From assembly GCA_032123655.1 (NCBI GenBank), contig JAQBEY010000120.1, forward strand, positions 2-64,001: a stretch of DNA of 64,000 nt, in the 5' to 3' direction. The notes beneath the pieces are model-generated. The model was not told the origin of the DNA. It ran no database searches and saw only the letters and a program-made list of their open reading frames with translations. This DNA is from Betaproteobacteria bacterium (GTDB lineage Bacteria > Pseudomonadota > Gammaproteobacteria > Burkholderiales > Casimicrobiaceae). The position numbers and the translations under genes were made by a program. Positions 36,604 to 59,242 of this stretch are shown here, piece by piece (the stretch's first letter is position 1; each line of letters begins with the position of its first letter).

Positions 36604-36604
36604 C

Positions 36605-38971: not shown

Positions 38972-38985
38972 ACCGGAGAACGCAC

Positions 38986-39780: not shown

Positions 39781-39800
39781 GCGTGCGGCCTTGCTATGCT

Positions 39801-39835
39801 ACGGGCGGGGGCTATCCTCCGCCCGTTTCTTTTCG
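39801..39835 (+). terminator. Intrinsic-terminator-like hairpin between coxM and coxD
   Basis: acgggcgg-ggctatcct-ccgcccgt followed by ttcttttc, immediately before the coxD start. Confidence 0.4.
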
Positions 39836-39836
39836 A

Positions 39837-40762
<926 letters not shown>

Positions 40763-40766
<4 letters not shown>

Positions 40767-42007
40767 CGCTGGCCACGCGCAGCGGACAGGCCGGCCTGCC
40801 GCGCGGTCGCCTCGCCGAGAACGTCCTGCATTTCGTGCGCGTGCTGCGCGCGGCCGGAATTCCGGTAGGGCCGGCGAAGGTGATCGACGCAGTGGCCGCG
40901 CTCGAGGTCGTCGGCATCGCCAACAAGAGCGATTTTCGCGAGGCGCTTGCCGCGGTGCTGGTCTCCCGCCGCGAGCATCTGCCGCTGTTCGAGCAGGCCT
41001 TCGACCTGTTCTGGCGCAACCCGAAGCTCCTCGAGAAAATGGTGGCCGCATTGCTGCCGCGCGTGTACGGACGCACCGGCGAACAGGCGCAGGAGCCGGA
41101 AGTCGCGGCGCGACTGGCGCAGGCGCTGTCGCCGCCGAAGCGGCCCGACGACCGACCGGAGGAGATGGAGGAGGTCGAACTCGACGCGGCGCTCTCGTTC
41201 TCGCCGCGCGAGATCCTGCAGCAGAAGGATTTCGCGACCATGACCGCGGACGAGCTGCGCGAAGTCAAGGCCATGCTTGCACAACTGCGCCTCCCGCTGC
41301 ACGAGCATCCGGTACGTCGCACGCGATCGGCGCGGCGCGGGTCGCGGGTGGATCTGCGAGCGACCATGCGAGGGATGACGGGTGCGGCCGGCGCGGTCGC
41401 GCCGCTGGCGTATCGGCGGCGTGTGCGGCGCCCGCCGCCGCTGGTCGTGCTCTGCGACATCTCCGGCTCGATGGACCGCTACGCGCGGATGCTGCTGCAT
41501 TTTCTGCACGCAATCACCAACGACCGGCACCGCGTGCATACGCTGGTCTTCGGGACGCGGCTTACCAACATCACCCGGCACCTCACGCACCGTGACGTCG
41601 ACGTGGCGCTGGCGCGGGTGACCGCCGCGGTGGACGACTGGGCAGGGGGCACGCGAATCGGCGCCTGCATGGCCGACTTCAACCGCTTCTGGTCGCGACG
41701 TCTGCTTGGTCAGAATGCGGTGGTCCTGCTCATCAGCGACGGCCTCGATGCGGAGGGTGGCGAAGGACTGGGCTTCGAGGTCGAGCGTCTGGCCAAGTCG
41801 TGCACGCGCCTCATCTGGCTCAATCCATTGCTGCGCTACTCCGGCTTCGAGGCGCGTCCGGCCGGCATTCGGGCAATGCTCCCGCACGTCGACGATTTCC
41901 TGCCGGTGCACAACATTGCATCGCTGCGCGAGTTGGCCGCGGCGCTCGACCTGCGACGCCCGCGCACGATCAAGCCGCCGGCCGGCGCGTCGTCGCGCGG
42001 AGCCTAG
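40763..42007 (+). CDS. coxE: VWA-domain protein, CoxE-like
   Basis: MIDAS motif VVLCDISGSM in the C-terminal VWA domain. The GTG start overlaps the coxD stop. Confidence 0.8.
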
Positions 42008-42232
42008 GCGGACCGGTCGCAGCATGCTCGCCCGGCCGGGCCTCGACCGATGGCCGCCCGCGGAGGCAACGTTTCGGATCGCGAAGCGGTGGCTCTACAA
42101 TGCGCCTCATGAACGCCGGATCATGGGGGCGGCGCTGAGTATTCATTGGTTGCTGCAGCCGGTTGCTGCGCGATTTTCGACAATGCGATCGCCGCCGCGA
42201 AACTGCAGGCACACCGCGAGGAGCAATACCGA

Positions 42233-42817
42233 ATGGAAATGACCAACACCCGCATCGTTCCCGCGCCGCCCGCCAAGGTCTGGAACGCGCTCAACGATCC
42301 TGCCACGCTCAAGGCCTGCATTCCCGGCTGCGATTCGCTCGAGCTGGTGGGTGAGAATGAGTGGCGCGCGGTGATGGCGGCAAAGGTCGGTCCGGTCTCG
42401 GCGCGATTCACGGGCACGATGAAAATGACCGATAGCCACCCGCCCGACGGTTACACGCTGCAGTTCGAGGGACAGGGCGGTGCCGCCGGCTTCGCGCGCG
42501 GGCAGGCGGTGGTATCGCTCGCCGCCTCGGGCGACGCGCAGACGGCGCTGACCTACGCGGTGAAGGCGCAGGTGGGCGGCAAGCTCGCACAGATCGGATC
42601 GCGGCTGGTCGATGGAGCGGCGGCCAAGCTCGCCGAAGATTTCTTTGGACGCTTCGCGCAGTCGCTGCAACCGGCCGGTGCGGCCGAACGCGATGCGGCG
42701 GCGATGTTGCCCAGCGCAGCCGGTGAAGCGCCGTCCGGACGGCGTTGGATTCGCTACATCGCGCTGGCCGCGATCGCTGCGGTCATCTGGTACCTGATGG
42801 TCTACGGCATCCGCTGA
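42233..42817 (+). CDS. coxG: SRPBCC-fold CoxG-family protein with C-terminal membrane anchor
   Basis: ...VPAPPAKVWNALNDPATLKACIPGC...GGKLAQIGSRLVDGAAAKLAEDFF is CoxG-like. A hydrophobic tail (WIRYIALAAIAAVIWYLMVYG) follows. Confidence 0.75.
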   Translation: MEMTNTRIVPAPPAKVWNALNDPATLKACIPGCDSLELVGENEWRAVMAAKVGPVSARFTGTMKMTDSHPPDGYTLQFEGQGGAAGFARGQAVVSLAASGDAQTALTYAVKAQVGGKLAQIGSRLVDGAAAKLAEDFFGRFAQSLQPAGAAERDAAAMLPSAAGEAPSGRRWIRYIALAAIAAVIWYLMVYGIR

Positions 42818-42850
42818 CGGTCGGGTTGCTCGCCGTTGCGCGGCGTGTGC

Positions 42851-44512
42851 CTAGCCGGCGCGCGCGCCCGCGCACTTGCCGCGGTCGTCGGCCACGACGA
42901 TCAGGTAAAGCGGCCTGCCGTCGGCTCCGGCCAGCGTCTCTTCGCTGCGCTCGCAGGGTGGATGACGCGCGAGCAGCGAATCAAGCTGTGCGCGGACACC
43001 CGTGGCCGCAGGCGAGGTCGATGCGAAGAGCACGAATGCCACCCGCCGGCCATGCAGATGCTCGACCGCCGCGCCGCCCGACGGTGCGGGCGCGTCGGGC
43101 GTTGCCGTGGCGAGCGGTCGGGACCAATCGCGAAAACCCGCGGAGACGGTGCGGGGCGAATGGGTGATCAGCGGCTGGTGCAGGCCCGGATCCACGCTGA
43201 CGACGCGGTCGACGTCGAGTTCCGTGAGCCGCTCCGCGAGCTTGCCGATCGCCGAATCGAAGGTCGGGCGGTAGTCGTGGTCATATCGCCACGAATCGAT
43301 GTAGCGCAGGTCGATGCCGACGTTCCAGGCGAACAGCGCGCCGCAGACGACCGCGCCGACGGTGGCGACGGTGGCGCGCTGGCCGGGCCGCTGACTTCCC
43401 GGCTGGTCGCCGGGTCGTTGCGAGACAATCGCCAGCAGCGTGACGAGCTGCAACGTGGGCAGCGGCCAGAGCATGATCAGGTGGTGCGTGCCGTCGACCT
43501 GCGGCGTGACGACGATGACCGCGAACAGCAACACCAGGGCCGCGGTAAGAAAGGCCAGCAGCCGTCGTGCCGGCGTCCATGGACGCCAATGCGCCAGCAG
43601 GTACACGGCAACGGCAATCTGCACCAGCGCCAACACGTTGAAGGCCGCGGTGGCGCGGACCCTGAGCCCGAAAACCCAGTGCATGACCGAGGTGCCGCTG
43701 AAGGTCGCGGCGTAAAGTTTCCAGACCTTGATGTATTGTGCGACCGGGTCGAAGGCGCCGCCGGCATGGGGGGTATCCGGCACCATGGCATGGCGGACCA
43801 GCGTGGCGACGCCCCAAGCGAGAAGCAACGCCGTTGCGGCGGCGATGACGGGCTGCCAGGGCGCGCCCGCGCGCAGACGCTGAAACACCATGCGGCCCGA
43901 AACCAGTGCGCCGGCACCGACGAAGGCCACGATAACCCAGAGGAAGTTGAGTTTGTCGACAAAACCCACCAGGAACGCGAAGCACAGCAACAGCAGCCAG
44001 TGCGTGCGCCCCGAATGCACCCAGTTCCAGAGGGCGACCAGCGCCAACACCCGCATCAGCGTGGCGATCATCGCCGGCCCCCAGTCGAGCCGCGCGTGGC
44101 TCAGCAGCACCGGGTCGGATACCATCAGCACCAGTGCCAGCAGCGCCCAGGCGCTGCCAAGCTCGCGGCGAAGAAAATGCCAGAGCACCGCCAACGCTGC
44201 GGCTGCGAACAGGATCGACGGCAGGCGCACCGTCCATACGTTGATGCCGAAGGCGGCGAACAGCGGCGCATGCAGCCAGGCCTTCACCGCGCCGACATAT
44301 TCCGGCGTCTGCATCAGCGGCAAACAGCCCCAGGACAGCGTGACGCCGGCATCGACGTCGCATTGCCCCAACGCCTGCAATGCCACCGGGACAAAGGCCA
44401 CTTCCTCGAACTGATATCCAGGGCGCGCGAGCTCGATGCTGGCCAGACCGACGAATGCCGCAATGAACAGATAGGGCAGGGCGAAGCGCAGGACCAGGGC
44501 CATGATGGACAA
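42851..44512 (-). CDS. GT-C-fold integral membrane glycosyltransferase (ArnT/PMT-like, GT39/GT83-type)
   Basis: 553 aa with about 10-12 hydrophobic segments followed by a soluble C-terminal domain, an architecture like polyprenyl-phosphate-dependent GT-C enzymes. The family call is tentative. Confidence 0.55.
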   Translation of the reverse strand: MSIMALVLRFALPYLFIAAFVGLASIELARPGYQFEEVAFVPVALQALGQCDVDAGVTLSWGCLPLMQTPEYVGAVKAWLHAPLFAAFGINVWTVRLPSILFAAAALAVLWHFLRRELGSAWALLALVLMVSDPVLLSHARLDWGPAMIATLMRVLALVALWNWVHSGRTHWLLLLCFAFLVGFVDKLNFLWVIVAFVGAGALVSGRMVFQRLRAGAPWQPVIAAATALLLAWGVATLVRHAMVPDTPHAGGAFDPVAQYIKVWKLYAATFSGTSVMHWVFGLRVRATAAFNVLALVQIAVAVYLLAHWRPWTPARRLLAFLTAALVLLFAVIVVTPQVDGTHHLIMLWPLPTLQLVTLLAIVSQRPGDQPGSQRPGQRATVATVGAVVCGALFAWNVGIDLRYIDSWRYDHDYRPTFDSAIGKLAERLTELDVDRVVSVDPGLHQPLITHSPRTVSAGFRDWSRPLATATPDAPAPSGGAAVEHLHGRRVAFVLFASTSPAATGVRAQLDSLLARHPPCERSEETLAGADGRPLYLIVVADDRGKCAGARAG

Positions 44513-44674
44513 TCGCGTGATGACGGGAGGCGGTTCCAGTTAACGCGAAGCGCGAGGATGGGTCAAGTCCGTCGGGCGAGCGCTGCGTGGTCCGGACGTG
44601 GCCAATTGTGTGCCCGCATGGCTGCTCTTGGGTAAAATGGGCCCATGCCCGGCGATACGGGCGGGAGTCGGAAC

Positions 44675-45688
44675 ATGGACAGCGTCGATCTGGAAGTCCT
44701 GAAGCGCAGCGCGCATTGGCTGGACGAGGGCAAGCGAGTGCTGCTGGTCACGGTCGTCAATACCTGGGGCAGCTCGCCGCGCCCCGAGGGGGCCATGCTC
44801 GCGGTGCGCGAAGACGGGCTGGTCGTGGGCTCGGTGTCCGGCGGTTGCATCGAGGACGACCTGATCGAGCGCACGCGCCGGCTGGGAATGACGCAGACGG
44901 AGGTCGGAGTGGTCACCTACGGCGTGTCCGCCGACGAGGCCCGCCGCTTCGGGCTGCCCTGCGGCGGGACCATCCGCTTGGTGACGGAACCGCTGACCAA
45001 GGAGTCGGGAATTCTGCTCCTGCTGCGCGAAATCGAGGCCGGCCATCTGGTGTCGCGGCGGCTCGATCTGCTCACCGGCCTTGCGAGCCTGCATCCTGCG
45101 CGCGCGACCGATGGACTCGCCTTCGACGGCAAGACACTGACCACGATTCACGGACCGCGCTACCGGATGCTGGTGATCGGCGCCTCGCAGCTGTCGAAGT
45201 ACCTGGCGCAGATCGCGGTTGGCCTCGACTACCAGGTGACGGTTTGCGACCCGCGCGAGGAATACACGGAGACCTGGGACATCCAGGGCGTGAGCCTGGT
45301 GCGCACCATGCCGGACGATACCGTCACCGCCATGCGGCTCGACGAACGCTGCGCGGTGATCGCCTTGACGCACGACCCGAAGCTCGACGACCTGGCGCTG
45401 ATGGAAGCACTGAAATCGCCGGCGTTCTATGTCGGCGCGCTCGGTTCGCGTGCGAACAACGCCAAGCGGCGGGTGCGCCTGCGCGAGGTCGACGTCACCG
45501 AGGCGGAGATCGCGCGCCTGCACGGTCCCATCGGCCTGTACATCGGCAGCCGCACGCCGCCGGAGATCGCGATTTCGATCCTGGCCGAGGTCACCGCGGT
45601 CAAGAACGGGTTGACGCTGCCAGATACGGTTCGTGTCGCCGGCGCCAAGGATAAAATCGCGCCTTCCGAGGCCTGCCCGACCAACTGA
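44675..45688 (+). CDS. XdhC/CoxI-family molybdenum cofactor insertion accessory protein
   Basis: ...LVTVVNTWGSSPRPEGAML...GSVSGGCIE... followed by a Rossmann-like YRMLVIGASQLS region. ATG 44675 follows a GGGAG Shine-Dalgarno sequence, and ATG 44645 is also in frame. Confidence 0.8.
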   Translation: MDSVDLEVLKRSAHWLDEGKRVLLVTVVNTWGSSPRPEGAMLAVREDGLVVGSVSGGCIEDDLIERTRRLGMTQTEVGVVTYGVSADEARRFGLPCGGTIRLVTEPLTKESGILLLLREIEAGHLVSRRLDLLTGLASLHPARATDGLAFDGKTLTTIHGPRYRMLVIGASQLSKYLAQIAVGLDYQVTVCDPREEYTETWDIQGVSLVRTMPDDTVTAMRLDERCAVIALTHDPKLDDLALMEALKSPAFYVGALGSRANNAKRRVRLREVDVTEAEIARLHGPIGLYIGSRTPPEIAISILAEVTAVKNGLTLPDTVRVAGAKDKIAPSEACPTN

Positions 45689-45840: not shown

Positions 45841-46515
45841 ATGCTCGATCAGCGCAGTCGCCCCCGTACTACCGCCCCCGTTTCCACCGCTCCGTTTCCC
45901 GCAATCCCGCCGCGTAGCCGCCAGCCGGCCGCGATCCGGGTACGCCTGTTTTCCTGGGCGATGGCGGTGATGGTCGTCGTCGCGCTGGTGAGCGCCGGCG
46001 AGTCCGAGGCGCAGTGGAAGCCGCAGCCCGCGCCCATGTCCTCCACGCCGGCGGATGCGACAGCCTCGGTCTGGGACGCGCCTGAGCCGTGGCGTACCGA
46101 CCGCTTCTACATCCAGACCAGCGTCGCCACAATTCATTTCAACTCGGACCCGGATCACGACAATACGCAAAGACTGATTTATGGAGAGTGGCGCCTTCCG
46201 TACCGCTGGCTGGACGGACAGCCGTTCATCGGCGCGTCTGGATTCGACAATTCGTTCGGGCAATGGTCGCAGTTCTACTTCGGCGGCGTGCTGTGGCGGC
46301 CAATCGAAAAAGCACCGGAGTTCTACGTCAAGGTGGCAGCAGGCGCGCTGCACGGCTACACCGGTGAATTCGAGGACAAGGTTCCCTTCAACAGCAATGG
46401 CTGGTCGCCGGGCATCGTGCCGGGAGTGGGCTACTGCTACAAACGGTTTTGCGGGGAAATGATCCTGTTTGGCGGGGCCGGAATTCTGTGGACCGTGGGC
46501 ATGACGCTGCCCTAG
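45841..46515 (+). CDS. Putative outer-membrane beta-barrel protein, PagP-like (lipid A palmitoyltransferase-like)
   Basis: The segments ...IHFNSDPDHDNTQRLIYGEW... and ...GFDNSFGQWSQFY... loosely recall the PagP His and Asp-Ser regions, and the C-terminus is aromatic-rich. The likely true start is near MAVMVVVALVSAGESEAQ (about 45961). Assigned from memory only. Confidence 0.4.
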   Translation: MLDQRSRPRTTAPVSTAPFPAIPPRSRQPAAIRVRLFSWAMAVMVVVALVSAGESEAQWKPQPAPMSSTPADATASVWDAPEPWRTDRFYIQTSVATIHFNSDPDHDNTQRLIYGEWRLPYRWLDGQPFIGASGFDNSFGQWSQFYFGGVLWRPIEKAPEFYVKVAAGALHGYTGEFEDKVPFNSNGWSPGIVPGVGYCYKRFCGEMILFGGAGILWTVGMTLP

Positions 46516-46536: not shown

Positions 46537-47181
46537 TCAGGACGCAGCGGCGAGGGTCGACAGCGCGCGCCAGCGCTCGAGATCCGCTGGTTCGTCGACG
46601 TCCCATGACAACTGCAGGTCGGCGCAACCAATGCCGGCCGTCGCAAATGCGGCTCGGGTGTCGGCATGCGCATTCGCGCTGCTGAAACGCACACCCGGAA
46701 ACTGCAGTGGTCGGCGCGCACCGACAAGCACAAAACCCCCATCGACCGCCGGCCCCAGCACGGCATCGTGCCCGGCGAGCGCGTCGCCTGCCTGTGCCAG
46801 ATACGCAACGTCCAGACAGGGACAGTCGGTGCCGATGAGCAGCACGCCGCCGGAGCGGGTCAGCGCTGCGGCAAGCGCGTTGGTCATGCGCTCGCCCAGA
46901 TCCCCACCCTGCTGGCGATACCGGGTCGCGCCGAAACGCGTGGCCAGTTCGCGGAAGTAGTCGCTGTCGGCATCCGGTGCGCACCACAACTCGATCCGGC
47001 CGACCACTTCGGCGATGCGCGCTCGCGCCGCCTGCGCCAGCGTCACTTCGGTGAGTTCGCGGTAGATCGCCGCGGCTTCGACGTCGCCCAGCGCCAGCGC
47101 GAGGCGGGTTTTCACGGTGCCTGGAACGGGTTCCTTCGCGAAAACGACCAGCGCGGGCGGAGACCTGGGCGCGACCGTCAT
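46537..47181 (-). CDS. DUF2064 / TIGR04282-like nucleotidyltransferase-fold protein ('arsenosugar biosynthesis glycosyltransferase' in RefSeq naming)
   Basis: ALVVFAKEPVPGTVKTRLA...GGDLGERM...LIGTDCP...GPAVDGGFVLVG is the DUF2064 pattern. The ATG overlaps the upstream stop (ATGA at 47178-47181). Confidence 0.7.
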   Translation of the reverse strand: MTVAPRSPPALVVFAKEPVPGTVKTRLALALGDVEAAAIYRELTEVTLAQAARARIAEVVGRIELWCAPDADSDYFRELATRFGATRYRQQGGDLGERMTNALAAALTRSGGVLLIGTDCPCLDVAYLAQAGDALAGHDAVLGPAVDGGFVLVGARRPLQFPGVRFSSANAHADTRAAFATAGIGCADLQLSWDVDEPADLERWRALSTLAAAS

Positions 47182-47852
47182 CGATAGTGCCGGGCAAGCT
47201 GCGCGGGGTCGGCGCCCAGCGCGTAGGCAAGGCGCAGGCGCCACATGGTGAGGATGGTCTTCCACGGGCCGTGTGCTTCCCAGCGGCGGCCGGAAGTCTC
47301 GATGCGGGAAGCGAGGCAGGCGGGACGGCCGCCCCGCCGTTTCAGCGTCCGCGAAAGCTGCACGTCCTCCATCAGGGGGATCGCCGCATAGCCACCCACC
47401 AGGTCGAACAGCGTTCGGGTGACGAAAATTCCCTGGTCGCCCGTGGCGATTCCGGTCAGTCTTGAGCGCAGGTTCATCATTGCGGCGACGAGCTTGAGGA
47501 TGCGCGGGCGTCCTCGAATGGTCACGTCGAAGCGCCCCCAACCGGCACCGGCGCGCAAGGCGTCGTCGATCGCCGCCGCCGCCGCTTCCGGCAGACGCGA
47601 GTCCGCGTGCAGGAACAGCAGCACGTCTCCGCGGGCCGCGCCGGCGCCGGCGTTCATCTGGACGGCGCGGCCGCGCGGCGCCACCAGAACCCGGTCGGCC
47701 CGGCCCTGCGCGACCTCCTGGGTGGCATCACGGCTGCCGCCGTCGACGACAAGAACTTCGTGCCCGGCTGCGCGCAATGGCGCGAGCGCTGCAAGCGCGC
47801 CGATGAGCGTCGCGCCTTCGTCAAGCGTCGGGATGATGATCGAGAGCTTCAT
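47178..47852 (-). CDS. Family-2 glycosyltransferase, TIGR04283-like
   Basis: LSIIIPTLDE...VVDGGSRD...RGRAVQMNAGAGAARGDVLLFLHADS...TGDQGIFV...LMEDVQLS. Confidence 0.7.
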   Translation of the reverse strand: MKLSIIIPTLDEGATLIGALAALAPLRAAGHEVLVVDGGSRDATQEVAQGRADRVLVAPRGRAVQMNAGAGAARGDVLLFLHADSRLPEAAAAAIDDALRAGAGWGRFDVTIRGRPRILKLVAAMMNLRSRLTGIATGDQGIFVTRTLFDLVGGYAAIPLMEDVQLSRTLKRRGGRPACLASRIETSGRRWEAHGPWKTILTMWRLRLAYALGADPAQLARHYR

Positions 47853-47901
47853 CAGGGACAGGCGTCGCCGGCGCGGGTGGGAAGCAGGTGAACGGAAGGC
47901 A

Positions 47902-48597
47902 TCAGCGAATATCCGCAAAGAAGGCGCGCGGAGGTTCGCGTCCTGCGCGCAAGCATAGCAAAATGGCCACCACGCGCCAGAGACTGCGCCAGACACCCAT
48001 TTGCTCGAATTTCCGCGAACTGGTAATCACCTCGAGCGACAGGAACGAGGGCGGCGCTATGTCGCGCAGCCGCTGTGACAGCGCGATGTCCTCGGCGATG
48101 CATTCGGGGAAACCGCCCACGCGCCGGAACGCGGCGGCGCTCACGAACATCGCCTGGTCGCCATAGAAAGTCTGCATCCTGGAACAGCGCCAGTTGTGCA
48201 AGGCGGAAATGGTGCGCAGGCGCCAGTCGTCGCCGGAGAAGCGGTGCCGGAAGCCGCCGTAGACGAAGCCTGGCGTACTTGCCGCCGCGCCGATGGCCGC
48301 CAGCGCGCCGTCGGGAAGCGCGGTGTCGGCATGCAGAAAAAGCAGCACGTCGCCCGTGGCCGCGGCCGCGCCGGCGTTCATCTGCGTCGCCCGGCCGCGC
48401 CGCGCGGTGACCATGCGGATCCATTCGATGCGACGCAGCAGGGCGGGACCAGTGTCGGTGCTGCCGCCATCCACCGCGATCACCTCGACGGCCATTGCGC
48501 GTTGACGCTCGCGTTCGAGACGCGCCAGCGTCGAGGGTAGTGCGCGCGCTTCGTTGAGATAGGGGATGACGACGGAAATCTTCACCGTCTCGTCCAC
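47902..48597 (-). CDS. Family-2 glycosyltransferase, paralog of the downstream TIGR04283-like gene
   Basis: ISVVIPYLNE...AVDGGSTD...RGRATQMNAGAAAATGDVLLFLHADT...YGDQAMFV...IAEDIALS shares the long QMNAGA..A.GDVLLFLHAD block with 47178-47852. Confidence 0.7.
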   Translation of the reverse strand: MDETVKISVVIPYLNEARALPSTLARLERERQRAMAVEVIAVDGGSTDTGPALLRRIEWIRMVTARRGRATQMNAGAAAATGDVLLFLHADTALPDGALAAIGAAASTPGFVYGGFRHRFSGDDWRLRTISALHNWRCSRMQTFYGDQAMFVSAAAFRRVGGFPECIAEDIALSQRLRDIAPPSFLSLEVITSSRKFEQMGVWRSLWRVVAILLCLRAGREPPRAFFADIR

Positions 48598-48789
48598 GGT
48601 TCGAGGCGCGCGTCGAGTCGGGCGCCGATGGTTTCCTGAGCGATGCCGAAATAGCGCGGTGCCGGCGCTCCGGATTCGATCATCCGTTGTGTGCTCGCCC
48701 GATGACGTCGCAGGTCGCCGCGCTCCGGAGGACGTCGGATGGTCGATCGCACGGCAAAGTCTTCGCAGACGTCGTGCATGACCGTGTGG

Positions 48790-49614
48790 TCATTGGCCCC
48801 GTGGTGGCGTGCCGTTGAGCGCCCAGTCGTAGTCGATCCATTCGATCCTGTAAGTGTCCGCGGTGAGTCCGCGGGCTACTTCCGGATCGGTCACGTAGCG
48901 CGCAACGTACTTCTGCACCGAACCTGCAGGGCCGCTGAAATCTTCGTCGAACCATTTGAAGATTTCCGACAAATTTGCCAGCTTGCCGACCTTGTCGAAG
49001 CGATTGCGCGATGGGTCGTTGACGAACCGGCGCGCCTGTTCGTCCAGTTGCGTATCGAGCCGCGCCGGCGCATAGGCTTCGCTGCGCAGCAAGGGGCAGG
49101 ACTTCGACGCGCAGATGATCGCAAAGTGGATGCGTGACTCACCCAACGGACGGATGATCTTGTGCTCGAGATCGTAAAGATTGACGCTCTGGCCGTTCAG
49201 CGACCAGTCCTTGAGCTTGAAATAGCGGGCGCGACCGAAGAACGTGGATGGCGACAGGCCTTCGAGGATGCCGGCGATGGCCAGCGCGTTGTAGGCGTTG
49301 ATGTAATAGACCAGCGTGTCCGCCTTGGTATCGAGCTTGACCGGCCTGGCGAGGCTTTCCACGTATTTGCCGAAAGCCGGGCTCGCCTCGAAGCCCGGAT
49401 AGTTCACCTGGCCATTCCTGACGTTGGCCTTGAGCAGCGCGTCGAAGGGCGCGTGGTCGACACCCTGCGCCCTTGCCGCGGTGATACCCGGCGCGAGGGT
49501 CAGCACCAGCAGCGCGAGCAGCAGTCGTGCGAGTCGATGCCCGATCCGCGCGGCGGCCGCGGCAGGCCTGGTAGGAATAATGTTCATTGCCACCAGAAAT
49601 GGTCGGGAAATCAC
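48790..49614 (-). CDS. DUF547-domain protein with signal peptide
   Basis: ...YINAYNALAI...IHFAIICASKSCPLL...FKWF..DF... is the DUF547 pattern. The ATG at 49614 overlaps the TVP38 stop (ATGA), and ATG 49587 is an alternative start. Confidence 0.7.
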   Translation of the reverse strand: MISRPFLVAMNIIPTRPAAAAARIGHRLARLLLALLVLTLAPGITAARAQGVDHAPFDALLKANVRNGQVNYPGFEASPAFGKYVESLARPVKLDTKADTLVYYINAYNALAIAGILEGLSPSTFFGRARYFKLKDWSLNGQSVNLYDLEHKIIRPLGESRIHFAIICASKSCPLLRSEAYAPARLDTQLDEQARRFVNDPSRNRFDKVGKLANLSEIFKWFDEDFSGPAGSVQKYVARYVTDPEVARGLTADTYRIEWIDYDWALNGTPPRGQ

Positions 49615-50336
49615 GGCGAAGGATTACGCCGGGACTTCCATTTCCTGATCCCGACCGGCACCAGCGCGAAGGCCCCCAACAGCGCGAATGCGCCCAGCGT
49701 CTCGGCGGAGACCAGCCCTTGCAGCGAGTCGATGCTGCCCAGCGTCTGGCCAAGGTTCACGAAAACGAAGGAGCCTGGAATGATGCCGATCAGCGTGCCG
49801 ATGACAAAGGTCCGTAACGGTACGGATGTGAACGCGGGTGCCAGGTTCACCAGAAAAAACGGAAACAGCGGAACCAGGCGCAGGAACAACAGGTAGTTGA
49901 ACGCATTCTCGGAAAACCCGGCGTTGATCCTGTCGCCCAGCGGACCCAAACGCTTGCGCGCCGCCTCCGCGAACACGTAACGGGCGGCCAGGAAGATGAT
50001 CGTCGCGCCGACGGTCGCCGCGACCACGACCAGTGCCGTGCCCACCCAGCGGCCGAAGACGAAGCCGGTCGCCAGCGACAGAACCAGCGCGCCGGGCAGG
50101 CTGAAGGCCACCGACCCGGCGTAGATCAGGAAGGCGATGACCAGCGCGGCGGCAAAATGCGCTTCGGTGTAGTCGAGCAATGCCGCGCGATGCGCCTTGA
50201 TGTTGGCGAGCGTGAGGACGTGATGGCCGTCGAGCGCGAAAAACGCGATGACGACGCCGACAAACAGCGCCAGGATCACGAATTTGAGCCAGCGCCGATC
50301 GGCGGGCGGTCGTGCGCCTTCAGTCGGGGCACCCAC
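49611..50336 (-). CDS. TVP38/TMEM64 (DedA-related, SNARE-associated) membrane protein
   Basis: ...PGALVLSLATGFVFG...FNYLLFLRLVPLFPFFLVNL...GIIPG is a typical TVP38 sequence. The GTG start lies 1 nt after the upstream stop. Confidence 0.75.
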   Translation of the reverse strand: MGAPTEGARPPADRRWLKFVILALFVGVVIAFFALDGHHVLTLANIKAHRAALLDYTEAHFAAALVIAFLIYAGSVAFSLPGALVLSLATGFVFGRWVGTALVVVAATVGATIIFLAARYVFAEAARKRLGPLGDRINAGFSENAFNYLLFLRLVPLFPFFLVNLAPAFTSVPLRTFVIGTLIGIIPGSFVFVNLGQTLGSIDSLQGLVSAETLGAFALLGAFALVPVGIRKWKSRRNPSP

Positions 50337-50337
50337 C

Positions 50338-51768
50338 CTAGTTTCCCTGCAAGCGGAAAATCCGCTTGATCCAGGTCTTGGCGGTGGGGGTCAGTCCCTC
50401 CTTCATCCGCTGATCCGCGACCCGCCGGTTGATCGATGCGAAGGTCGGATAGGTGTGGATGGTTCCCGAGATGTCCGCGGCCTTCATGCCCTTGGTGAGC
50501 GCCAGCGCATATTCGGCAATCAGTTCGCCGGCATGCGCACCGACGATCGCCGCGCCGAGCAATTTTCCTCTTGGATCGGTGACTATCTTGGCCAGGCCCT
50601 CGGACTCGCCTTCGGCCAGCGCGCGGTCGATTTCATCGAACGCGAAGCGATAGACGCGGTGATCGATGCCCTGCTGCTGCGCCTCGGTTTCCGACAGCCC
50701 GACCCGCGCGAGTTCGGGGTCGGTGAAGGTGCACCAGGGAATCACCCTGGTCGGTGCTGCCCACCACATGCGGAACAGTGCCTGGCGCAGCACGATGCCG
50801 GCATGGTGCTCGGCAACGTGGGTGAATTGCAGTCCGCCGGCGGCGTCGCCGATCACGTAGATGTGCGATTGCGAGGAGCGCAGTTTGGCGTCGACGACGA
50901 TGCGCCCGCGTTCGACCGCGACTCCGGCTGCTTCGAGCCCCAACCCTTCGATATTGGCGCGGCGTCCGGCGGCGAGCAGCAGATGCGTGGCCTCCAGCCT
51001 TTGCTCGCTGCCGTCCTTGCCTTTGATCGTCAGCGCGATCGCGCCCTTGCTGCCCTCGGCCCGGGTGATCGCCGCGTCGAAGTGATAGCGGATGCCCTCG
51101 GCCACCAGCTGGCGGTGCACCACCGCGGCGAGATCCGGGTCCTCGCGCGGCAGGATGGCCGGCGCCATGTCGATCACCGTGACTTCACTGCCCAGGCGGC
51201 GGAAGGCCTGCGCCATTTCGCTGCCGATCGGGCCGCTGCCGACGACCAGCAGCGAGGGCACCGGCTCGCGCAGGTCGAAGATGGTTTCGTTGGTGAGGTA
51301 GGGCACCGTGTCGATGCCCGGGATCGGCGGCACCGCGGCGCGCGAACCGGTGGCGATGACGAAGGACTTGCCGCGCAGCTTTCGTCCGCCGACTTCGAAG
51401 CAGTCCGGGCCGGTGAAATGGCCGTCGCCGAATGTCACGTCCACGCCCAGGCCGCGAAAACGTTCGGGACTGTCGTTGGGCTCGATGGTCGCAATGACTG
51501 CGCGCACGCGTTCCATGACCCGGGCGAGGTCTGGATGCGGTTCGGCCGGCGTCAGTGCCCAGCGATCGGCGTGGCGCATTTCGTAGGCGATCCGCGCCGA
51601 CTTGATCAGCGTCTTGGACGGCACGCAGCCGGTCCACAGGCAGTCGCCGCCCAGCCGGTGCTTTTCCACCAGCGCCACCTTGGCGCCCAGTGCGCTGCCG
51701 CCGGCCGCAACGACCAGGCCACCGGAGCCGCCGCCGATGACGACGATGTCGAATTCGGGTTGGGACAA
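50338..51768 (-). CDS. Flavoprotein disulfide reductase family (mercuric reductase/dihydrolipoamide dehydrogenase-like)
   Basis: FDIVVIGGGSGG...redox-active GGDCLWTGCVPSK...second Rossmann motif VVGSGPIGSEMA...C-terminal dimerisation domain TYPT. The proposed start is TTG 51768, 5 nt after GGAGG. The tracked ORF's 63 extra N-terminal codons have no family counterpart. Confidence 0.75.
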   Translation of the reverse strand: MSQPEFDIVVIGGGSGGLVVAAGGSALGAKVALVEKHRLGGDCLWTGCVPSKTLIKSARIAYEMRHADRWALTPAEPHPDLARVMERVRAVIATIEPNDSPERFRGLGVDVTFGDGHFTGPDCFEVGGRKLRGKSFVIATGSRAAVPPIPGIDTVPYLTNETIFDLREPVPSLLVVGSGPIGSEMAQAFRRLGSEVTVIDMAPAILPREDPDLAAVVHRQLVAEGIRYHFDAAITRAEGSKGAIALTIKGKDGSEQRLEATHLLLAAGRRANIEGLGLEAAGVAVERGRIVVDAKLRSSQSHIYVIGDAAGGLQFTHVAEHHAGIVLRQALFRMWWAAPTRVIPWCTFTDPELARVGLSETEAQQQGIDHRVYRFAFDEIDRALAEGESEGLAKIVTDPRGKLLGAAIVGAHAGELIAEYALALTKGMKAADISGTIHTYPTFASINRRVADQRMKEGLTPTAKTWIKRIFRLQGN

Positions 51769-51998
51769 GAAAACCTCCGTGATTGGACCCGCGAGGACAC
51801 GGCCGCACGCCCCAACCACGCGGGGCCGTGGGATTGTGTCGGACTGTTCTCCGGTGATCTTACAGAGAGTTCGGAGTTCGTACAGCGCGGCGCATGCATT
51901 CGACTTGCCTTGGTCATAGGGCCAGGCTGCGAGCGAATGCGCAGTGTCCATCACCAAAAGGCATCAGGCATACTGGAGTTTTTCGCCCCGATGTACCC

Positions 51999-53093
51999 AT
52001 GGACACGCCCAAGGTCAGCGTAATCGTTCGCAGCATCGGGCGTCCGACGCTGGCGTTGGCGCTGGCATCGATTGCCGCGCAGGGCTATCCGTTGGCCGAG
52101 GTCGTCGTGGTCGCGGCCACGGGCAACGCCCATCCGCCCGTACCTGACGCCTGCGGTCCGTATCCGATCCGCGAAGTGCGCCGCGCCGACCGCTTGCCGC
52201 GGCCGCAGGCCGCGGATGCGGGCATCCGCGCCGCCACCGGCGACTGGATCACCTTCCTCGACGACGATGACGAGGTGCTTCCCGGACACCTTGCGGGGCT
52301 GGTCACCAGTGCTGCAAATCAGCCCGGGGCGCGCGCCGTCAACGGCCGCGCATTGGCCACGTTTCGCATTGGCGACATGGAAGTCTGGGGCCAGCGTTTC
52401 GCCCTGGCGGAACTCTACCAGCGCAACTTCGTGCATCTTTCCACGCTGCTCTTTCATCGCTCGCTGCTGGAGGCGGGGATTGCGTTCGATCCCGAACTGC
52501 CGATGCACGAGGATTGGGATTTCGCCCTGCAGATCGCGCAGCACACGGCCTTTGCCGATTGGCCGCAGGCTACTTTTCGGTGGAATGCCGACGCCGGGAC
52601 CTCGGGCGCCGGTGGCGGCGAGAACAGCGACGACGCGGCCTTCGCGAAACACCGAGACTACGTCTACGCGAAATGGGCCGCCGACCGCGACGCGCTGGTG
52701 GAGCGCAGCCTCGCGCTTCTGCAGCGCGCGTCGGCAGCGGCGGGCGCCGGTCGGCTGGACGAGGCCGCGGCCGCCGCGACCGAGGTGCTAACCTTCAGCC
52801 AGAACGACCCATTTGCGCTCAATCTGCTGGCGCTGGTCGCAACCCGACAGGGCGACCGCGCGTCAGCGCTTCGCCAGCAGGCAACCGCGGTCGAGGTGCG
52901 TCCTGGCGACCCCGATCTGCACTACAACCTCGCGCTGGCGCGGCACGCGGCGGGCGACATCGACGGTGCCCGGACGGCGCTGAACGAGGCGCTCAAGCTC
53001 GATCCGGCGCATGCGCGCGCGGCGGCGAAGTTGCGCCAGTTCGCTCCGGCGCAGGTCTTCCCGCTGGCATCCGGGATTCCTCCGCAACGCTGA
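51999..53093 (+). CDS. Family-2 glycosyltransferase fused to C-terminal TPR repeats
   Basis: VSVIVRSIGRP...DWITFLDDDDE (DxD)...then TPR-like ...NLLALVATRQGDRASALRQQATAVEVRPGDPDLHYNLALARHAAGDIDGARTALNEALKLDP. Confidence 0.65.
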   Translation: MDTPKVSVIVRSIGRPTLALALASIAAQGYPLAEVVVVAATGNAHPPVPDACGPYPIREVRRADRLPRPQAADAGIRAATGDWITFLDDDDEVLPGHLAGLVTSAANQPGARAVNGRALATFRIGDMEVWGQRFALAELYQRNFVHLSTLLFHRSLLEAGIAFDPELPMHEDWDFALQIAQHTAFADWPQATFRWNADAGTSGAGGGENSDDAAFAKHRDYVYAKWAADRDALVERSLALLQRASAAAGAGRLDEAAAAATEVLTFSQNDPFALNLLALVATRQGDRASALRQQATAVEVRPGDPDLHYNLALARHAAGDIDGARTALNEALKLDPAHARAAAKLRQFAPAQVFPLASGIPPQR

Positions 53094-53182
53094 TCGGTCC
53101 ATCGGCGTGCTCGTGGCGACGACGTGGCGCAGATTGGGACTAGAGGGGCGTTGACGCCGCTCGATGGGGCGCCGGCCGGGAT

Positions 53183-53199
53183 GCCAGAAATTTTCTGGC
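53183..53199. terminator. Palindrome between convergent genes (possible bidirectional terminator)
   Basis: gccagaaa-t-tttctggc lies between the GT2-TPR stop and the LysR stop. The stem is weak and A/T-rich, so confidence is low. Confidence 0.25.
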
Positions 53200-53219
53200 G
53201 AAATGCCAACTGTCTTCGG

Positions 53220-54194
53220 TCAGCGAACCGAGGAGGCCGACCGGGCGCCGATATTTTCCCCGATCATGAGCTCGGCAGCAGCGATTTCGTGTTCCACCTC
53301 GATCAACGCCTGCTTGAATGCTTCGGCCGCCGGCGAGAGCGTGATCCCACGCCTGAAGACGAAACCGTAGGCAGTCTGCATCCATCCGGTGCGCGCCGAG
53401 AGGGGAACGAGCTTCCCCAGGGAGATTTCCTCCGCGATGGACACCAGCGGCGCAACGGCCACAGCGTCGCTGGCGGTCACCACGTCAGTCGCCATCCAGG
53501 TCGAGTCCACCTTGATCGGCGGCAGGTAATCCCCGGTATCCCGGTCGATCGAGCCGCCGCTGGCGAGTTCCATGAACGACTGCGCCACGCGTGACGGCAT
53601 GCGAGTCCCGACGAATGGAAAGCTCAGAATGCGCTTGAGCGAAGGATTCTTCTCCGCAAGCAGTGGATGGCCGGCTCGGCAATAGAAATAGGCCTGGTGC
53701 GAGGGCAGTTCTTCCGTGGCGATTCGCGGCTCCCCGGCGACGAGACTCCGCTCGATGACCGCCAAGTCGAGCCTGCCGGCCAGCAACGCGTCGATGATGC
53801 CCCGCAGGTCGCCATCCATCACGTCGATCCGAAGCTTCGGGTGCCGGCGCGCAAGGCGCCCGACGGCCTTCCCCACCGATATCCGGGCCGGGAACAGGCC
53901 TGTCCCGACGCGCAGTTCGCCGATCTCCCCGCCGCGCATCCTGCCGAAATCGCGCTCCAGTGTCGTCGCGCCGTCGAGCAAGCTGCGTCCGCGCGAAATG
54001 AACAACTCGCCGATCGCCGTGGGAACGACGCCCTGCGAGGTCCTGTTGAACAGCTTCTCGCCCACACGTGCCTCAAGCCGCGAAATGCTGCGCGACAGCG
54101 CGGGCTGCGTCAAATGCAGCGCCTGCGCCGCGCGCGCATAGTTCCCGTAGCTGGCAAGCGTAATTGCCTGGTGCAGGAGCTTTAGTTCAATCAC
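53220..54194 (-). CDS. LysR-family transcriptional regulator
   Basis: N-terminal HTH (LKLLHQAITLASYGNYARAAQALHLTQPALSRSISRLE) and a LysR substrate-binding domain. It is divergent from the arylsulfatase gene. Confidence 0.85.
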   Translation of the reverse strand: MIELKLLHQAITLASYGNYARAAQALHLTQPALSRSISRLEARVGEKLFNRTSQGVVPTAIGELFISRGRSLLDGATTLERDFGRMRGGEIGELRVGTGLFPARISVGKAVGRLARRHPKLRIDVMDGDLRGIIDALLAGRLDLAVIERSLVAGEPRIATEELPSHQAYFYCRAGHPLLAEKNPSLKRILSFPFVGTRMPSRVAQSFMELASGGSIDRDTGDYLPPIKVDSTWMATDVVTASDAVAVAPLVSIAEEISLGKLVPLSARTGWMQTAYGFVFRRGITLSPAAEAFKQALIEVEHEIAAAELMIGENIGARSASSVR

Positions 54195-54213
54195 GATGCC
54201 GCGATCTTATCAG

Positions 54214-54229
54214 GCCATGAATAAATGGC
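54214..54229. promoter_or_regulatory. Candidate LysR-type binding site
   Basis: gccat-gaataa-atggc, an interrupted palindrome 20 nt upstream of the LysR start in the divergent intergenic region. Confidence 0.3.
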
Positions 54230-54368
54230 ATTGGACGGCGTTTGCGGGCTCCGATTAACGTACGAGGCCGGCTCCGCATCGGGCCTTCGCGCGATGGCCG
54301 GGCTGCCGGCGGCGTGCACGCCGGACGAATCGCGGCAATTTCCAGGCAGTCGATTACCGGAGGTGCAA

Positions 54369-55928
<1,560 letters not shown>

Positions 55929-56062
55929 TCGCGACGGAGGTGACCGGCGCGCGTCGTCGCGCCGGTGGAGTTGTGCGGGCAATGAGCGAGTGCCTGCCGT
56001 GTCTGCCGGCAGGATCCGTGCAGGACATGAATTGAACAGCGATCGACCGAAGGACAGAGGTC

Positions 56063-56921
56063 ATGATCATCCCGCTTCAGTGGATAGGAATCTTCGCTGT
56101 CGGGCGGTGTTCGTCGTGATGTTCACGCTGGGGCTGATGCTCGGACGCGAGCAGATTGCCGCGGCGCTCGCGCGACGCGTCGTGCTCGCCGCGGTGATTT
56201 TCGCGGTGGTCGTGCCGATCCCGGCGCTGGCGGTGCTGATCGTCAAGGTCTTCCAGCCGCACCCTGCGGTGGCGCCGGCATTATCCTGATGGCGATTTCT
56301 CCCGGCGCGCCGGTCGCCCTGCGCCGCGCGCTTGACGCGGGCGGGCACCCCCACTTCGCGCCGGCGCTGCATCTGGCCATCGTCATGCTTGCCGTGGTGA
56401 CTGTGCCGACCAGCGTCCTGATCCTCGACTGGATCTTCAGCAAGGAGGTCGTGGTGTCGCCGCTGGACATCGGCCGGCAGGTGTTTTTTGCGCAACTGTT
56501 GCCGCTGGCGCTGGGCGCGACGCTGCGACGCTGGCGACCCGTGCTCGCGCAGAAGCTGGAACCGCGCCTGGCCAAGCTGGGCAATCTGCTGCTGATCGGC
56601 CTGGGCGTCATGGCGTTGGTCGACCTGCCGTCGATCATCCGTCATATCGGCTGGTTGCCGAGCCTTGCCGGCTTCGTCATGACCTTCGTGGCGCTGGCGG
56701 TCGGTGCTGCGTTCGCCTGGCGTGACCCCGAAGTGCGACCGGCCGCCGCAGTTGCCGCCGCGATGCGCAATCCCGGCCTGGCGCTGATGATCGCGTCGCT
56801 GAACCATGCCGGGCCGGCGGTGATTGCGGGCATCATCGGTTACGCGATCGGACTGGGCGTGGCGATGGTGGTATTCCTGCAGTGGCGCAAACGGGTGGTC
56901 GCGCGAGTACAGAGCGCGTAG
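56063..56921 (+). pseudogene. Bile acid:sodium symporter (BASS)-family transporter, apparently frameshifted
   Basis: Family-like sequence is split over frames. VMFTLGLMLGREQI... (frame of ORF 55990) stops at 56287-56289, and ...GIILMAISPGAPVA... continues in another frame (ORF 56289-56921). The junction is in the GC run gcggtggcgccggc (about 56266-56279). A second shift near 56105 is possible but weak. Confidence 0.5.
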
Positions 56922-57005
56922 CGCGCAAGGTGAAACGCCGTGCTTTGAAGCCGGATCGTCGTCACCGACTGCTATCATCGGTCCCGGACCACAGAGGTGA
57001 CTTCG

Positions 57006-57833
57006 ATGCTGCAGGCAACGGACTTGTGGAAATCCTATGCGGGAAAACCCGCAGTGGCCGGGGTTTCGTTCACTGCCGCGCGCGGTGAGATCCTAGGCCT
57101 GCTGGGACCCAACGGCGCAGGCAAGTCGACCACCGTTTCCATGCTCTGCGGACTGTTTCGGCCCGACCGCGGCACGGTGACCCTGGACGGCGAGCCGATC
57201 GGCGACAACGCCAACGGCGTCAAGCGCCGGATCGGACTGGTGACGCAGGAAATATCACTGCACGAGGAATTGTCCGCAATCGCCAATCTGCGGCTCTTTG
57301 GCGCGCTCTACGGTGTCGAGGGCGGCCTCCTGGACGAATGCTGCGCCGAGGCGCTCGATCTCGTCGGCTTGACCGATCGGGCGAAGTCGAAACCGGCGAC
57401 CTTCAGCGGTGGCATGAAGCGCCGTCTCAACATTGCCTGCGCGCTGGTTCACGATCCCGACGTGCTGATTCTCGACGAGCCTACCGTCGGCGTCGACCCG
57501 CAGAGTCGCAACGCCATCTTCGACAATCTCGAAGAATTGCGCTCACGCGGCAAGACGCTCGTCTACACCACGCACTACATGGAGGAGGTCGAGCGGCTCT
57601 GCGATCGCATCGTGATCATTGACCATGGCAAGGTGATCGCGGCCGACACTGCGGAAGGGCTGCAGCGCTTGCTGCCCCCGACCAGCACCCGTCGAATCGA
57701 GATCGAGGGTGTCGTTGACGAGGAGGTCCTTGCCTGGCTTGCCGGGCGTGGACTGGCGATTCGCGACGGACCGTCCGGTCCTTCGCTCGAAAACGTGTTC
57801 CTGCACCTCACCGGCCGGCAACTGAGGGACTGA
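57006..57833 (+). CDS. ABC transporter ATP-binding protein (ABC-2 exporter type)
   Basis: Walker A GPNGAGKST, signature FSGGMKRRL, Walker B VLILDEPT. ATG 57006 follows a GAGG Shine-Dalgarno sequence, and GTG 56997 is also in frame. Confidence 0.85.
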   Translation: MLQATDLWKSYAGKPAVAGVSFTAARGEILGLLGPNGAGKSTTVSMLCGLFRPDRGTVTLDGEPIGDNANGVKRRIGLVTQEISLHEELSAIANLRLFGALYGVEGGLLDECCAEALDLVGLTDRAKSKPATFSGGMKRRLNIACALVHDPDVLILDEPTVGVDPQSRNAIFDNLEELRSRGKTLVYTTHYMEEVERLCDRIVIIDHGKVIAADTAEGLQRLLPPTSTRRIEIEGVVDEEVLAWLAGRGLAIRDGPSGPSLENVFLHLTGRQLRD

Positions 57834-57835
57834 CC

Positions 57836-59128: not shown

Positions 59129-59242
59129 TTGGCACGCAATCGGCCTTGCATCCGATCATTGCCAGGAATTCGTCGGCGCCGACATTGGTGATCCGGACAA
59201 TGGATCGGAATTGAATCGCCGGCAACCTCGGGGAGGGACCGC

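Follow-up and report, generated by a model that had tools for sequence, protein, structure and literature searches.

A predicted six-gene operon of a betaproteobacterium and its relation to ArsS-containing gene clusters

We know of no enzymes that finish the biosynthesis of arsenosugars or arsenosugar phospholipids after ArsS has acted, nor of a dedicated organoarsenical reductase or transporter. The entry to the pathway is described: ArsM makes dimethylarsenite, and its adenosylation by ArsS is the first step that commits it to arsenosugars (Xue 2019 and Cheng 2021, as cited in other papers). Another described element is the commonest fusion of DedA proteins of the TVP38 type (COG0398), with the oxidoreductase domains PF07992/PF02852, which was left unexplained (PMC10127716). 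Here, we analyzed a 64,000-nucleotide stretch of a betaproteobacterial contig (JAQBEY010000120.1, assembly GCA_032123655.1), called the window below, in which a row of six genes at 46537-51768 encodes a flavoprotein, a TVP38/DedA membrane protein, a DUF547 protein, two glycosyltransferases (GT2a and GT2b) and a DUF2064 protein. The row is best read as an ArsS-less, rearranged, partly eroded and cassette-variable member of an extended arsS cluster family. Judged by sequence comparison, it is homologous to ArsS-containing clusters and, within its own clade, interchangeable with them.

Layout of the six-gene operon

All six genes are intact minus-strand open reading frames (ORFs), co-directional and close-set. 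The first encodes a 476-aa flavoprotein (50338..51768) with the class I pyridine-nucleotide disulfide-oxidoreductase fold and MerA-like features, which is matched by NCBIfam and by the Pfam families Pyr_redox_2 and Pyr_redox_dim. Its start codon is TTG, with GGAGG just before it, and its length agrees with that of about 120 homologues. One nucleotide past its stop begins the gene for the 241-aa TVP38/DedA inner-membrane protein (49611..50336), whose VTT domain (VTT_dom, PF09335) scores 78.4 bits against a Pfam gathering cut-off of 33.9. The DUF547 gene (48790..49614; PF04784, 79.7 bits, gathering cut-off 27) overlaps TVP38 by GTGA; gene callers start it at an ATG at 49587, which leaves a gap of 23 nt. 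The two GT-A glycosyltransferases follow, GT2a (47902..48597) after a gap of 192 nt (48598..48789) and GT2b (47178..47852) after a further 49 nt; for GT2a, gene callers give a start at 48585 (227 aa). Both pass the NCBIfam cut-off of 182 bits for TIGR04283, GT2b as the canonical member with 269.3 bits and GT2a as a second member with 211.8 bits. The last gene, DUF2064 (46537..47181), joins GT2b by an ATGA overlap and encodes a protein with a CofC/MobA-like nucleotidyltransferase fold, recognized by Pfam and, with 168.7 bits against a cut-off of 134, by the NCBIfam family TIGR04282. TIGR04282 and TIGR04283 both carry the NCBIfam name "arsenosugar biosynthesis glycosyltransferase".

A preliminary description of this DNA, made from the sequence alone, had named the same six families in a tightly packed minus-strand row; the ORF coordinates confirm the packing, including the spacings of 1, 192 and 49 nt and the ATGA at GT2/DUF2064, and the names hold at the curated Pfam and NCBIfam cut-offs. 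A second ATGA that it placed between TVP38 and DUF547 reads GTGA in the sequence. The CxxxxC motif reported for the flavoprotein is present (GGDCLWTGCVPSK), the signal peptide assigned to DUF547 corresponds to a signal-like N-terminal segment (RLARLLLALLVLTLAPGITAARA/QG), and the arsenosugar name given there for TIGR04282 and TIGR04283 is the one found in NCBIfam.

The six genes are predicted to form a real, conserved operon. The arrangement is not a product of chance, because the same order recurs in seven related loci (L087-L089, L175, L007, L173 and L174), and it is kept in relatives down to 54-74% identity. Ratios of nonsynonymous to synonymous substitution (dN/dS) against L087-L089 lie at 0.10-0.35 for all six genes, which are therefore maintained by selection. 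A scan for promoters and terminators gave nothing above shuffled expectation, and Rfam and tRNA scans of the 64-kb window gave no matches.

Relatives with and without ArsS

Counterparts of all six window proteins are found in ArsS-headed operons of other Burkholderiales and of Gammaproteobacteria, where the typical order is ArsS, a phosphoesterase-like protein, a TVP38~flavoprotein fusion, GT2, DUF547, GT2, DUF2064 and a TIGR03169 oxidoreductase. In three ArsS-anchored loci from Burkholderiales (L090-L092), ArsS is followed by a VTT~Pyr_redox fusion, GT2 and DUF2064. The phosphoesterase-like protein (321-329 aa) comes after ArsS in L090 and L091 only and is absent from L092, and TIGR03169 comes after DUF2064 in L090 and L092. 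Only L090 carries DUF547 and a second GT2 between its first GT2 and DUF2064, so that all six window families stand in one ArsS-headed operon; each window protein has its best match there in its own counterpart, at 38-59% identity. In a metagenome locus, L144, the row reads X (a protein described below), GT2a, ArsS, phosphoesterase-like protein, TVP38~flavoprotein, DUF547, GT2b and DUF2064.

The frequency of these associations was surveyed with a scan anchored on DUF2064 (one genome per species, 80 loci; profile from a 27-sequence subset), in which neighbors were identified by ORF, hidden Markov model (HMM) and clustering analysis. GT2b was found near DUF2064 in 64 of the 80 species loci, in the majority immediately upstream and in the same orientation. 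The leading non-glycosyltransferase neighbor by a wide margin, at 40 loci, was a 321-aa radical-SAM/Cys-rich protein identified as ArsS (TIGR04167, 467 bits, cut-off 300), a strongly conserved protein whose top 120 matches all show at least 77% identity. ArsM was near in 12 loci (NF008823, 356 bits, cut-off 263); the other neighbors were the flavoprotein subfamily (15), TVP38 (13), DUF547 (5), TIGR03169 (5) and the phosphoesterase-like protein (4). The preliminary description had suggested a metalloid link, which is upheld by the presence of all six families inside ArsS-headed operons (L090, L144) and of ArsM beside DUF2064.

A second scan, anchored on DUF547 in metagenomes, gave 80 loci, of which 24 had at least 5 kb on both sides. 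These 24 contained the flavoprotein 18 times, GT2b 11 times, ArsS 8 times, ATP-grasp 4 times and TIGR03169 3 times, and the flavoprotein lay directly upstream of DUF547 in 28 of 47 judgeable loci. By gene neighborhood, the flavoprotein is thus the closest partner of DUF547. Lipid-related neighbors recurred in the metagenome loci, namely DUF3047 (15 loci), GDSL lipase (7) and FA_hydroxylase (6), as did ATP-grasp (9). A 443-aa ATP-grasp_4 protein and DUF3047 occur downstream of DUF2064 or DUF547 in L087, L088, L174 and the loci L110-L164, and are not found in the window. TVP38~flavoprotein, DUF547 and ATP-grasp were also observed together without any GT2 or DUF2064, which suggests a further branch of the system.

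Two recurring coupled modules can be recognized in the neighborhoods: GT2b with DUF2064, and the flavoprotein with TVP38 and the exported DUF547. Functional coupling of the genes, as claimed in the preliminary description, is supported by gene fusions in both modules. GT2~DUF2064 fusions exist in both orders, and a GT2b~DUF2064 fusion is present in L173 and L174. Across genomes, TVP38 and the flavoprotein most often occur fused, as a protein of 713-735 aa, and the window TVP38 is an orthologue of the N-terminal half of these fusions (39% identical to that domain in L090). A comparison of gene neighborhoods across genomes had also been proposed there, and it showed both that the order recurs in relatives and that the families co-occur.

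Eight loci of the window's own clade, the window included, lie at one chromosomal site between DnaE and XdhC/cox. Constant in all eight are an unfused flavoprotein followed by TVP38, DUF547, GT2b and DUF2064. The interval between DUF547 and GT2b varies: it holds GT2a only in the window and L087, X and GT2a in L088, L089 and L175, and nothing in L007 and L174. In L173 it holds a 328-aa protein with a weak phosphoesterase match and then ArsS (544 bits on an ArsS HMM built here; Pfam Radical_SAM and DUF3641), followed by the GT2b~DUF2064 fusion. The flavoprotein, TVP38 and DUF547 of L173 are 71%, 72% and 63% identical to those of the window. The downstream end varies as well, with ATP-grasp and DUF3047 as optional genes. 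The preliminary description had proposed an undescribed stand-alone pathway; this part fell, because L173, a member of the same clade, has ArsS at the same locus, and the operon is instead a derivative of the arsS type.

The 192-nt gap of the window is more than a spacer and holds the remains of a lost gene. With tblastn, protein X matches the minus strand at 48591..48722 (E 5e-5, 34% identity over 44 aa), and the stretch 48591..48789, made up of the gap and 7 nt of GT2a, contains a relic of the X C-terminus. X is a protein of 226-235 aa that belongs to no Pfam family and has a weak MiaE_2-like match. It is intact between DUF547 and GT2a in L088, L089 and L175, and intact next to ArsS in L144.

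GT2a is an old paralogue of GT2b and not a recent duplicate, because the tree of the GT2 proteins places the two in separate clades: GT2a groups with the first GT2 of the L090 ArsS operon and GT2b with the canonical ArsS-linked copies. In BLASTP, GT2a is 50% identical to the first GT2 of L090 and 38% identical to GT2b, and a GT2a-type gene adjoins ArsS in L144. Taking these loci together, we consider it very probable that the operon is, in evolutionary terms, a derivative of an arsS-type cluster.

Protein features, proposed roles and alternatives

The redox-active CxxxxC of the flavoprotein is found in every one of the 21 subfamily members compared. Residue alignment to E3 (2eq6) and MerA (5x1y) places the Tyr of the motif IHTYPTFAS at the catalytic His, and its Ser at the Glu, of E3; the same Tyr-for-His replacement occurs in MerA. 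All 21 members share this motif, have only two conserved Cys and are extended at the C-terminus by about 30 aa; in the window protein, this extension ends in ...WIKRIFRLQGN, with no Cys and no C-terminal Cys pair. The best PDB match is MerA 5x1y, and the best NCBIfam match is NF004991 (505.8 bits, under the cut-off of 620). Assignment to named families was attempted and rejected in each case: MerA by score (TIGR02053, 357.4 bits against 454.45) and by the missing C-terminal Cys pair and NmerA domain, E3/GR by the missing His-Glu dyad (HxHPTxSE) and by score (TIGR01350, 365.8 against 408.8), and RclA and Har/MerA by scores of 214 and 224 against cut-offs of 740 and 650. The TVP38 protein has no cysteines at all.

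DUF547 carries a Cx4C motif (CASKSCP) whose two cysteines, C159 and C164, do not vary among 42 sequences. An AlphaFold2 model of the protein from the later start (48790..49587) has a predicted local distance difference test score (pLDDT) of 89.6 and a predicted template modelling score (pTM) of 0.81. A Foldseek search of PDB with this model gave no match (best E = 2, TM 0.24), nor did a search of PDB with the sequence, and the modelled protein may represent a fold without a solved representative. The family occurs in plants too. One DUF547 ORF, that of L099, is split; as a check for selenocysteine in this one ORF, its in-frame stops were located, and they do not lie at the Cys motif.

The nearest PDB relatives of the two GT2s are the generic GT-A family 2 enzymes DPMS, ArnC, GtrB and GpgS. 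The DUF2064 family, with 14,608 representatives at 50% identity, matches PDB 3cgx (2e-18 with the single sequence, 5e-42 with a profile) and, weakly, FbiD 7p97 (E = 0.007 with the family profile). The nucleotidyltransferase fold that the preliminary description gave to DUF2064 fits these matches. Assignment as a CofC/FbiD guanylyltransferase was rejected, with TIGR03552 at 44.3 bits, far under its cut-off of 105.

From these features and the gene neighborhoods we infer four roles: to activate, to transfer, to flip and to reduce. In one module (DUF2064, GT2b and GT2a), DUF2064 would nucleotidylate a phospho-sugar or phospho-glycerol intermediate in a CofC/FbiD-like manner, and the GT2s would attach an (arseno)ribosyl or glycerol group to an acceptor, either glycerol or a lipid. 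Where a genome contains ArsS, the intermediate would derive from the ArsS product 5'-deoxy-5'-dimethylarsinoyl-adenosine and would lead to an arsenosugar or a conjugate of the arsenosugar-phospholipid type. In the other module, a flavoprotein that works with NAD(P)H in the cytoplasm and has a MerA-like active site would be tethered or adjacent to a DedA/TVP38 scramblase or transporter. Here, the flavoprotein would set the redox state of the metalloid at the membrane, TVP38 would carry the compound, or a lipid conjugate of it, through the inner membrane, and the exported Cx4C protein DUF547 would bind or process the compound outside the cytoplasm by means of its Cys pair. In the window's genome, the substrate could be taken up from the environment or made by an ArsS whose gene lies at another place; alternatively, it could be a related non-ArsS substrate that the GT2a branch supplies.

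A more specific version of the second module is put forward with much reserve, as we consider it doubtful. The flavoprotein, TVP38 and DUF547 might together form a Mer-like relay for organo-metalloids across three compartments, in which DUF547 would be the exported binder with its Cys pair, TVP38 the DedA transporter or scramblase, and the flavoprotein a MerA-like reductase tethered to the membrane. If true, the relay could be the long-sought step by which pentavalent methylated arsenicals or arsenosugar conjugates are reduced and transported. Genomes without ArsS, such as that of the window, might then use it with GT2a, GT2b and DUF2064 to scavenge organoarsenicals of their neighbors and turn them into membrane arsenolipids, or to make a non-arsenical analogue. 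DUF547 and the commonest DedA fusion would thereby also be given a function for the first time.

That the operon still acts in organo-metalloid sugar or lipid metabolism is a reading that we favor only slightly, and a number of observations weigh against it. No ArsS or ArsM homologue was found by hmmsearch (E<=10), with HMMs made from ArsS and ArsM sequences, in six-frame translations of the 64-kb window, as the preliminary description had already stated for radical-SAM ArsS and arsenic methyltransferase genes, and the phosphoesterase-like family (cluster 28, weak Metallophos_2) had no tblastn match there. ArsS is not within 10 kb in seven of the eight same-clade loci. Across genomes, ArsS is missing beside half of the GT2b-DUF2064 pairs, the flavoprotein, given DUF2064, is not significantly tied to ArsS adjacency (8/12 vs 21/46, Fisher p = 0.33), and DUF547 and the flavoprotein are often found together where both GT2b and ArsS are lacking. 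Two further observations could point towards selenium: the window contains a gene of TIGR03169, a family that is elsewhere found as an N-terminal fusion to SelD and that comes after DUF2064 in many clusters, and SulP anion transporters recur nearby. Finally, literature searches returned no functional study of DUF2064, bacterial DUF547, TIGR04282/TIGR04283 or the other non-ArsS genes, and it is because the five non-ArsS families lack such studies in the searched literature that we infer the chemistry after ArsS.

Several of these observations would also fit the main rival, a pathway that is independent of ArsS, which we regard as possible but rather unlikely. The five constant genes and GT2a would then make a non-arsenical glycoconjugate, a glycolipid or a cofactor-like molecule, by a logic like that of CofC/FbiD and MftF with a reductase and a DedA flippase. 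ArsS and the phosphoesterase would be one optional cassette, for which the X/GT2a branch stands in within the window. Such a pathway would account for purifying selection on all six genes in a clade where nearby ArsS is confined to one locus, for phosphoesterase-like/ArsS and X/GT2a cassettes that occupy the same position in that clade, for the many ArsS-free GT2b-DUF2064 pairs and the ArsS-independent association of the flavoprotein, and for ATP-grasp and DUF3047 partners that recur without ArsS. However, X and GT2a coexist with ArsS and the phosphoesterase-like protein in L144, and a gene of the GT2a clade coexists with ArsS in L090. The two cassettes are therefore not simple alternatives. 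ArsS is, moreover, the leading non-glycosyltransferase neighbor of DUF2064 (half of the 80 loci), and it may be encoded elsewhere in the genome.

Less probable still, and in our view quite unlikely, is a reading in which this cluster family has selenium or some other chalcogen in place of arsenic as its target in these proteobacteria, with a product of the seleno-sugar or seleno-lipid type and with flavoproteins that reduce selenium species. Besides the TIGR03169 and SulP genes, this is favored by ArsS itself being a selenoprotein in some species (NCBIfam name; PMC13188914) and by the link of a DedA protein to selenite resistance (Ledgham 2005, in the form in which it is cited in PMC10127716). 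Against it, the only characterized ArsS acts on dimethylarsenite (Xue 2019 and Cheng 2021, as cited in other papers), 12 of the 80 loci have the arsenite methyltransferase ArsM as a neighbor, and inspection of one split DUF547 ORF revealed neither a SelD gene nor a selenocysteine codon.

The three remaining readings are each unlikely. Modification of an envelope polysaccharide or lipopolysaccharide, together with a neighboring GT2-TPR protein and an ArnT-like PMT_2 protein, would be in keeping with the nearby positions of the divergent GT2-TPR gene (51894..53093, plus strand; Pfam) and PMT_2 (42851..44539), and with polyprenyl-phosphate glycosyltransferases (DPMS, ArnC, GtrB) among the PDB relatives of the GT2s, but it is highly improbable: GT2-TPR occurs only in the window and, as a fragment, in L087, its side of the operon is part of an apparent insertion (about 8 kb), the loci L088, L089, L173 and L174 have no PMT_2 gene, and no polysaccharide export or polymerase genes are present. 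The envelope-glycan reading of the preliminary description is therefore not retained, because the flanking GT2-TPR and PMT_2 are not conserved neighbors. A mer-like resistance to Hg or another soft metal, with DUF547 as MerP, TVP38 as MerT and the flavoprotein as MerA, would explain the MerA-like active-site Tyr, the MerA 5x1y match and a mer-like layout of periplasmic Cys-pair protein, membrane protein and cytoplasmic reductase, but we give it very little weight, since the TIGR02053 score (357 against 454) and the lack of a C-terminal Cys pair and NmerA, a TVP38 without cysteines, the absence of MerR, MerT and MerP homologues and the steady partners GT2 and DUF2064, for which a metal-reduction system has no need, all oppose it. 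A decaying remnant without current function after loss of ArsS would suit the X relic and the absence of ArsS, the phosphoesterase-like protein, ATP-grasp and DUF3047, but is hardly credible for six intact ORFs under the selection noted above (dN/dS 0.10-0.35), identical in a second assembly across the operon and conserved in order among relatives to 54-74% identity.

We accordingly retain the reading of the operon as a member of the extended arsS cluster family. It ties three orphan protein families to the arsenosugar pathway and provides a concrete set of candidate genes. Within one clade and at one site, loci with ArsS, with X-GT2a and with neither constitute natural "knock-out" variants. 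The locus also calls for caution in annotation, as genomes with "arsenosugar biosynthesis glycosyltransferases" may lack ArsS nearby. Apparently, neither this cassette-variable locus without ArsS nor the presence of DUF547 and the TVP38~flavoprotein fusion within ArsS/TIGR04282/TIGR04283 clusters has been reported before.

Surroundings of the operon and comparison with known systems

The window was compared with a betaproteobacterial metagenome-assembled genome contig (GCA_032127195.1, L001), to which it is 99.93% identical over 20.7 kb, with no differences in the operon. Relative to that contig, the window has two single-base deletions, at ~56101 and ~56273, which both lie in an SBF-family transporter gene (56063..56923, plus strand) and shift about 57 codons out of frame; this frameshift is either a true allele or an assembly error. 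The 13 other differences over the 20.7 kb are substitutions, none of them in the operon.

Upstream of the flavoprotein, about 8 kb (51769..59836) separate it from a gene for a SulP-family anion transporter (59837..61594, minus strand; HMM score 895, with TIGR00815 at 356.5 under its cut-off of 380.45). The two genes adjoin in L007, L088 and L089, where the SulP orthologue is directly upstream of the flavoprotein. The intervening segment, which contains GT2-TPR (+), LysR (-), a sulfatase (+), the SBF-family transporter (+) and ABC-transporter genes (+), appears to have been inserted into an ancestral DnaE-SulP-flavoprotein arrangement. SulP is a possible associate of the operon; the link is weak, because SulP is missing at that position in L173 and L175.

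Another possible, distant member of the system is a flavoprotein oxidoreductase of the family TIGR03169 ("N-terminal to SelD"; 34742..35932, minus strand; 440.6 bits, cut-off 310), which lies 10.6 kb from the operon on the far side of the cox cluster. Copies of this family are cluster-linked in L090, L092, L073, L050, L051, L077 and L015 and in about 12 metagenome loci, and in several ArsS-type operons the gene after DUF2064 belongs to it. A gene for a SoxH-like hydrolase of the metallo-beta-lactamase fold (33745..34851, minus strand) adjoins the window copy.

At the other end of the operon, the conserved downstream boundary in all relatives is the cox/XdhC block. In the window, this CO-dehydrogenase/xanthine-dehydrogenase-family cluster (36452..45688) comprises the large subunit, the FAD subunit, CoxD-like AAA, CoxE-like VWA, CoxG and XdhC, with the ArnT-like PMT_2 gene inserted within it. 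Between the cluster and the operon, a 224-aa protein with a signal-like N-terminus is encoded at 45841..46515 on the plus strand, convergent with DUF2064 and with 21 nt between the stop codons. It had no Pfam or NCBIfam match, its position is kept in L087, L088, L089 and L007, and it may be an outer-membrane protein. The remaining window is core chromosome, with rpsB, bamA, lpxA/B, dnaE and the cox/xdh cluster. Near its beginning there is a Mu-type transposase gene (Mu-transpos_C_2; 4391..5944, minus strand), and the region 1..8000, with a G+C of 0.60-0.64 against ~0.67 elsewhere, is probably a mobile element or a prophage remnant.

Among known systems, the ArsM/ArsS arsenosugar pathway of Synechocystis sp. 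PCC 6803, taken with the TIGR04167/TIGR04282/TIGR04283 set of "rSAM-associated transferase" genes, is approached through GT2b and DUF2064, which pass TIGR04283 and TIGR04282 and whose orthologues directly follow ArsS in 40 of the 80 loci and in L173. The window differs from it in lacking ArsS, ArsM and the phosphoesterase-like gene and in having the additional GT2a, an unfused flavoprotein followed by TVP38, and DUF547. In that pathway, only ArsM and ArsS have been characterized experimentally, and the transferases are named from genome context.

The logic of nucleotidyl activation followed by transfer is shared with the F420 enzyme CofC/FbiD, to which DUF2064 has a weak but significant similarity (TIGR03552, 44 bits; 7p97), and with the mycofactocin enzyme MftF, to which the TIGR04283 GT2s are weakly similar (43 bits). 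The scores are, however, far under the family cut-offs, and no F420 or mycofactocin genes are nearby. The fold and the Cys pair of the flavoprotein are also those of RclA and HOSCN reductases, whose substrates are not disulfides, whereas the window subfamily has a distinctive C-terminal extension and DedA tethering.

The mer operon is similar in the flavoprotein, with its class I fold, CxxxxC and Tyr for His, and in the membrane protein and exported Cys-pair protein alongside. It differs in that the window flavoprotein has neither the C-terminal Cys pair nor NmerA and scores below the MerA cut-off, TVP38 is cysteine-free and belongs to the DedA superfamily, unrelated to MerT, and DUF547 is unrelated to MerP and has another fold. 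This half of the operon also resembles the COG0398 DedA~oxidoreductase fusions (PMC10127716), of which the window TVP38 and flavoprotein are exactly the split form. That study ties the fusion loosely to aerobic metabolism, whereas here the fusion, or the split pair, sits in ArsS/TIGR04282/TIGR04283 clusters beside DUF547.

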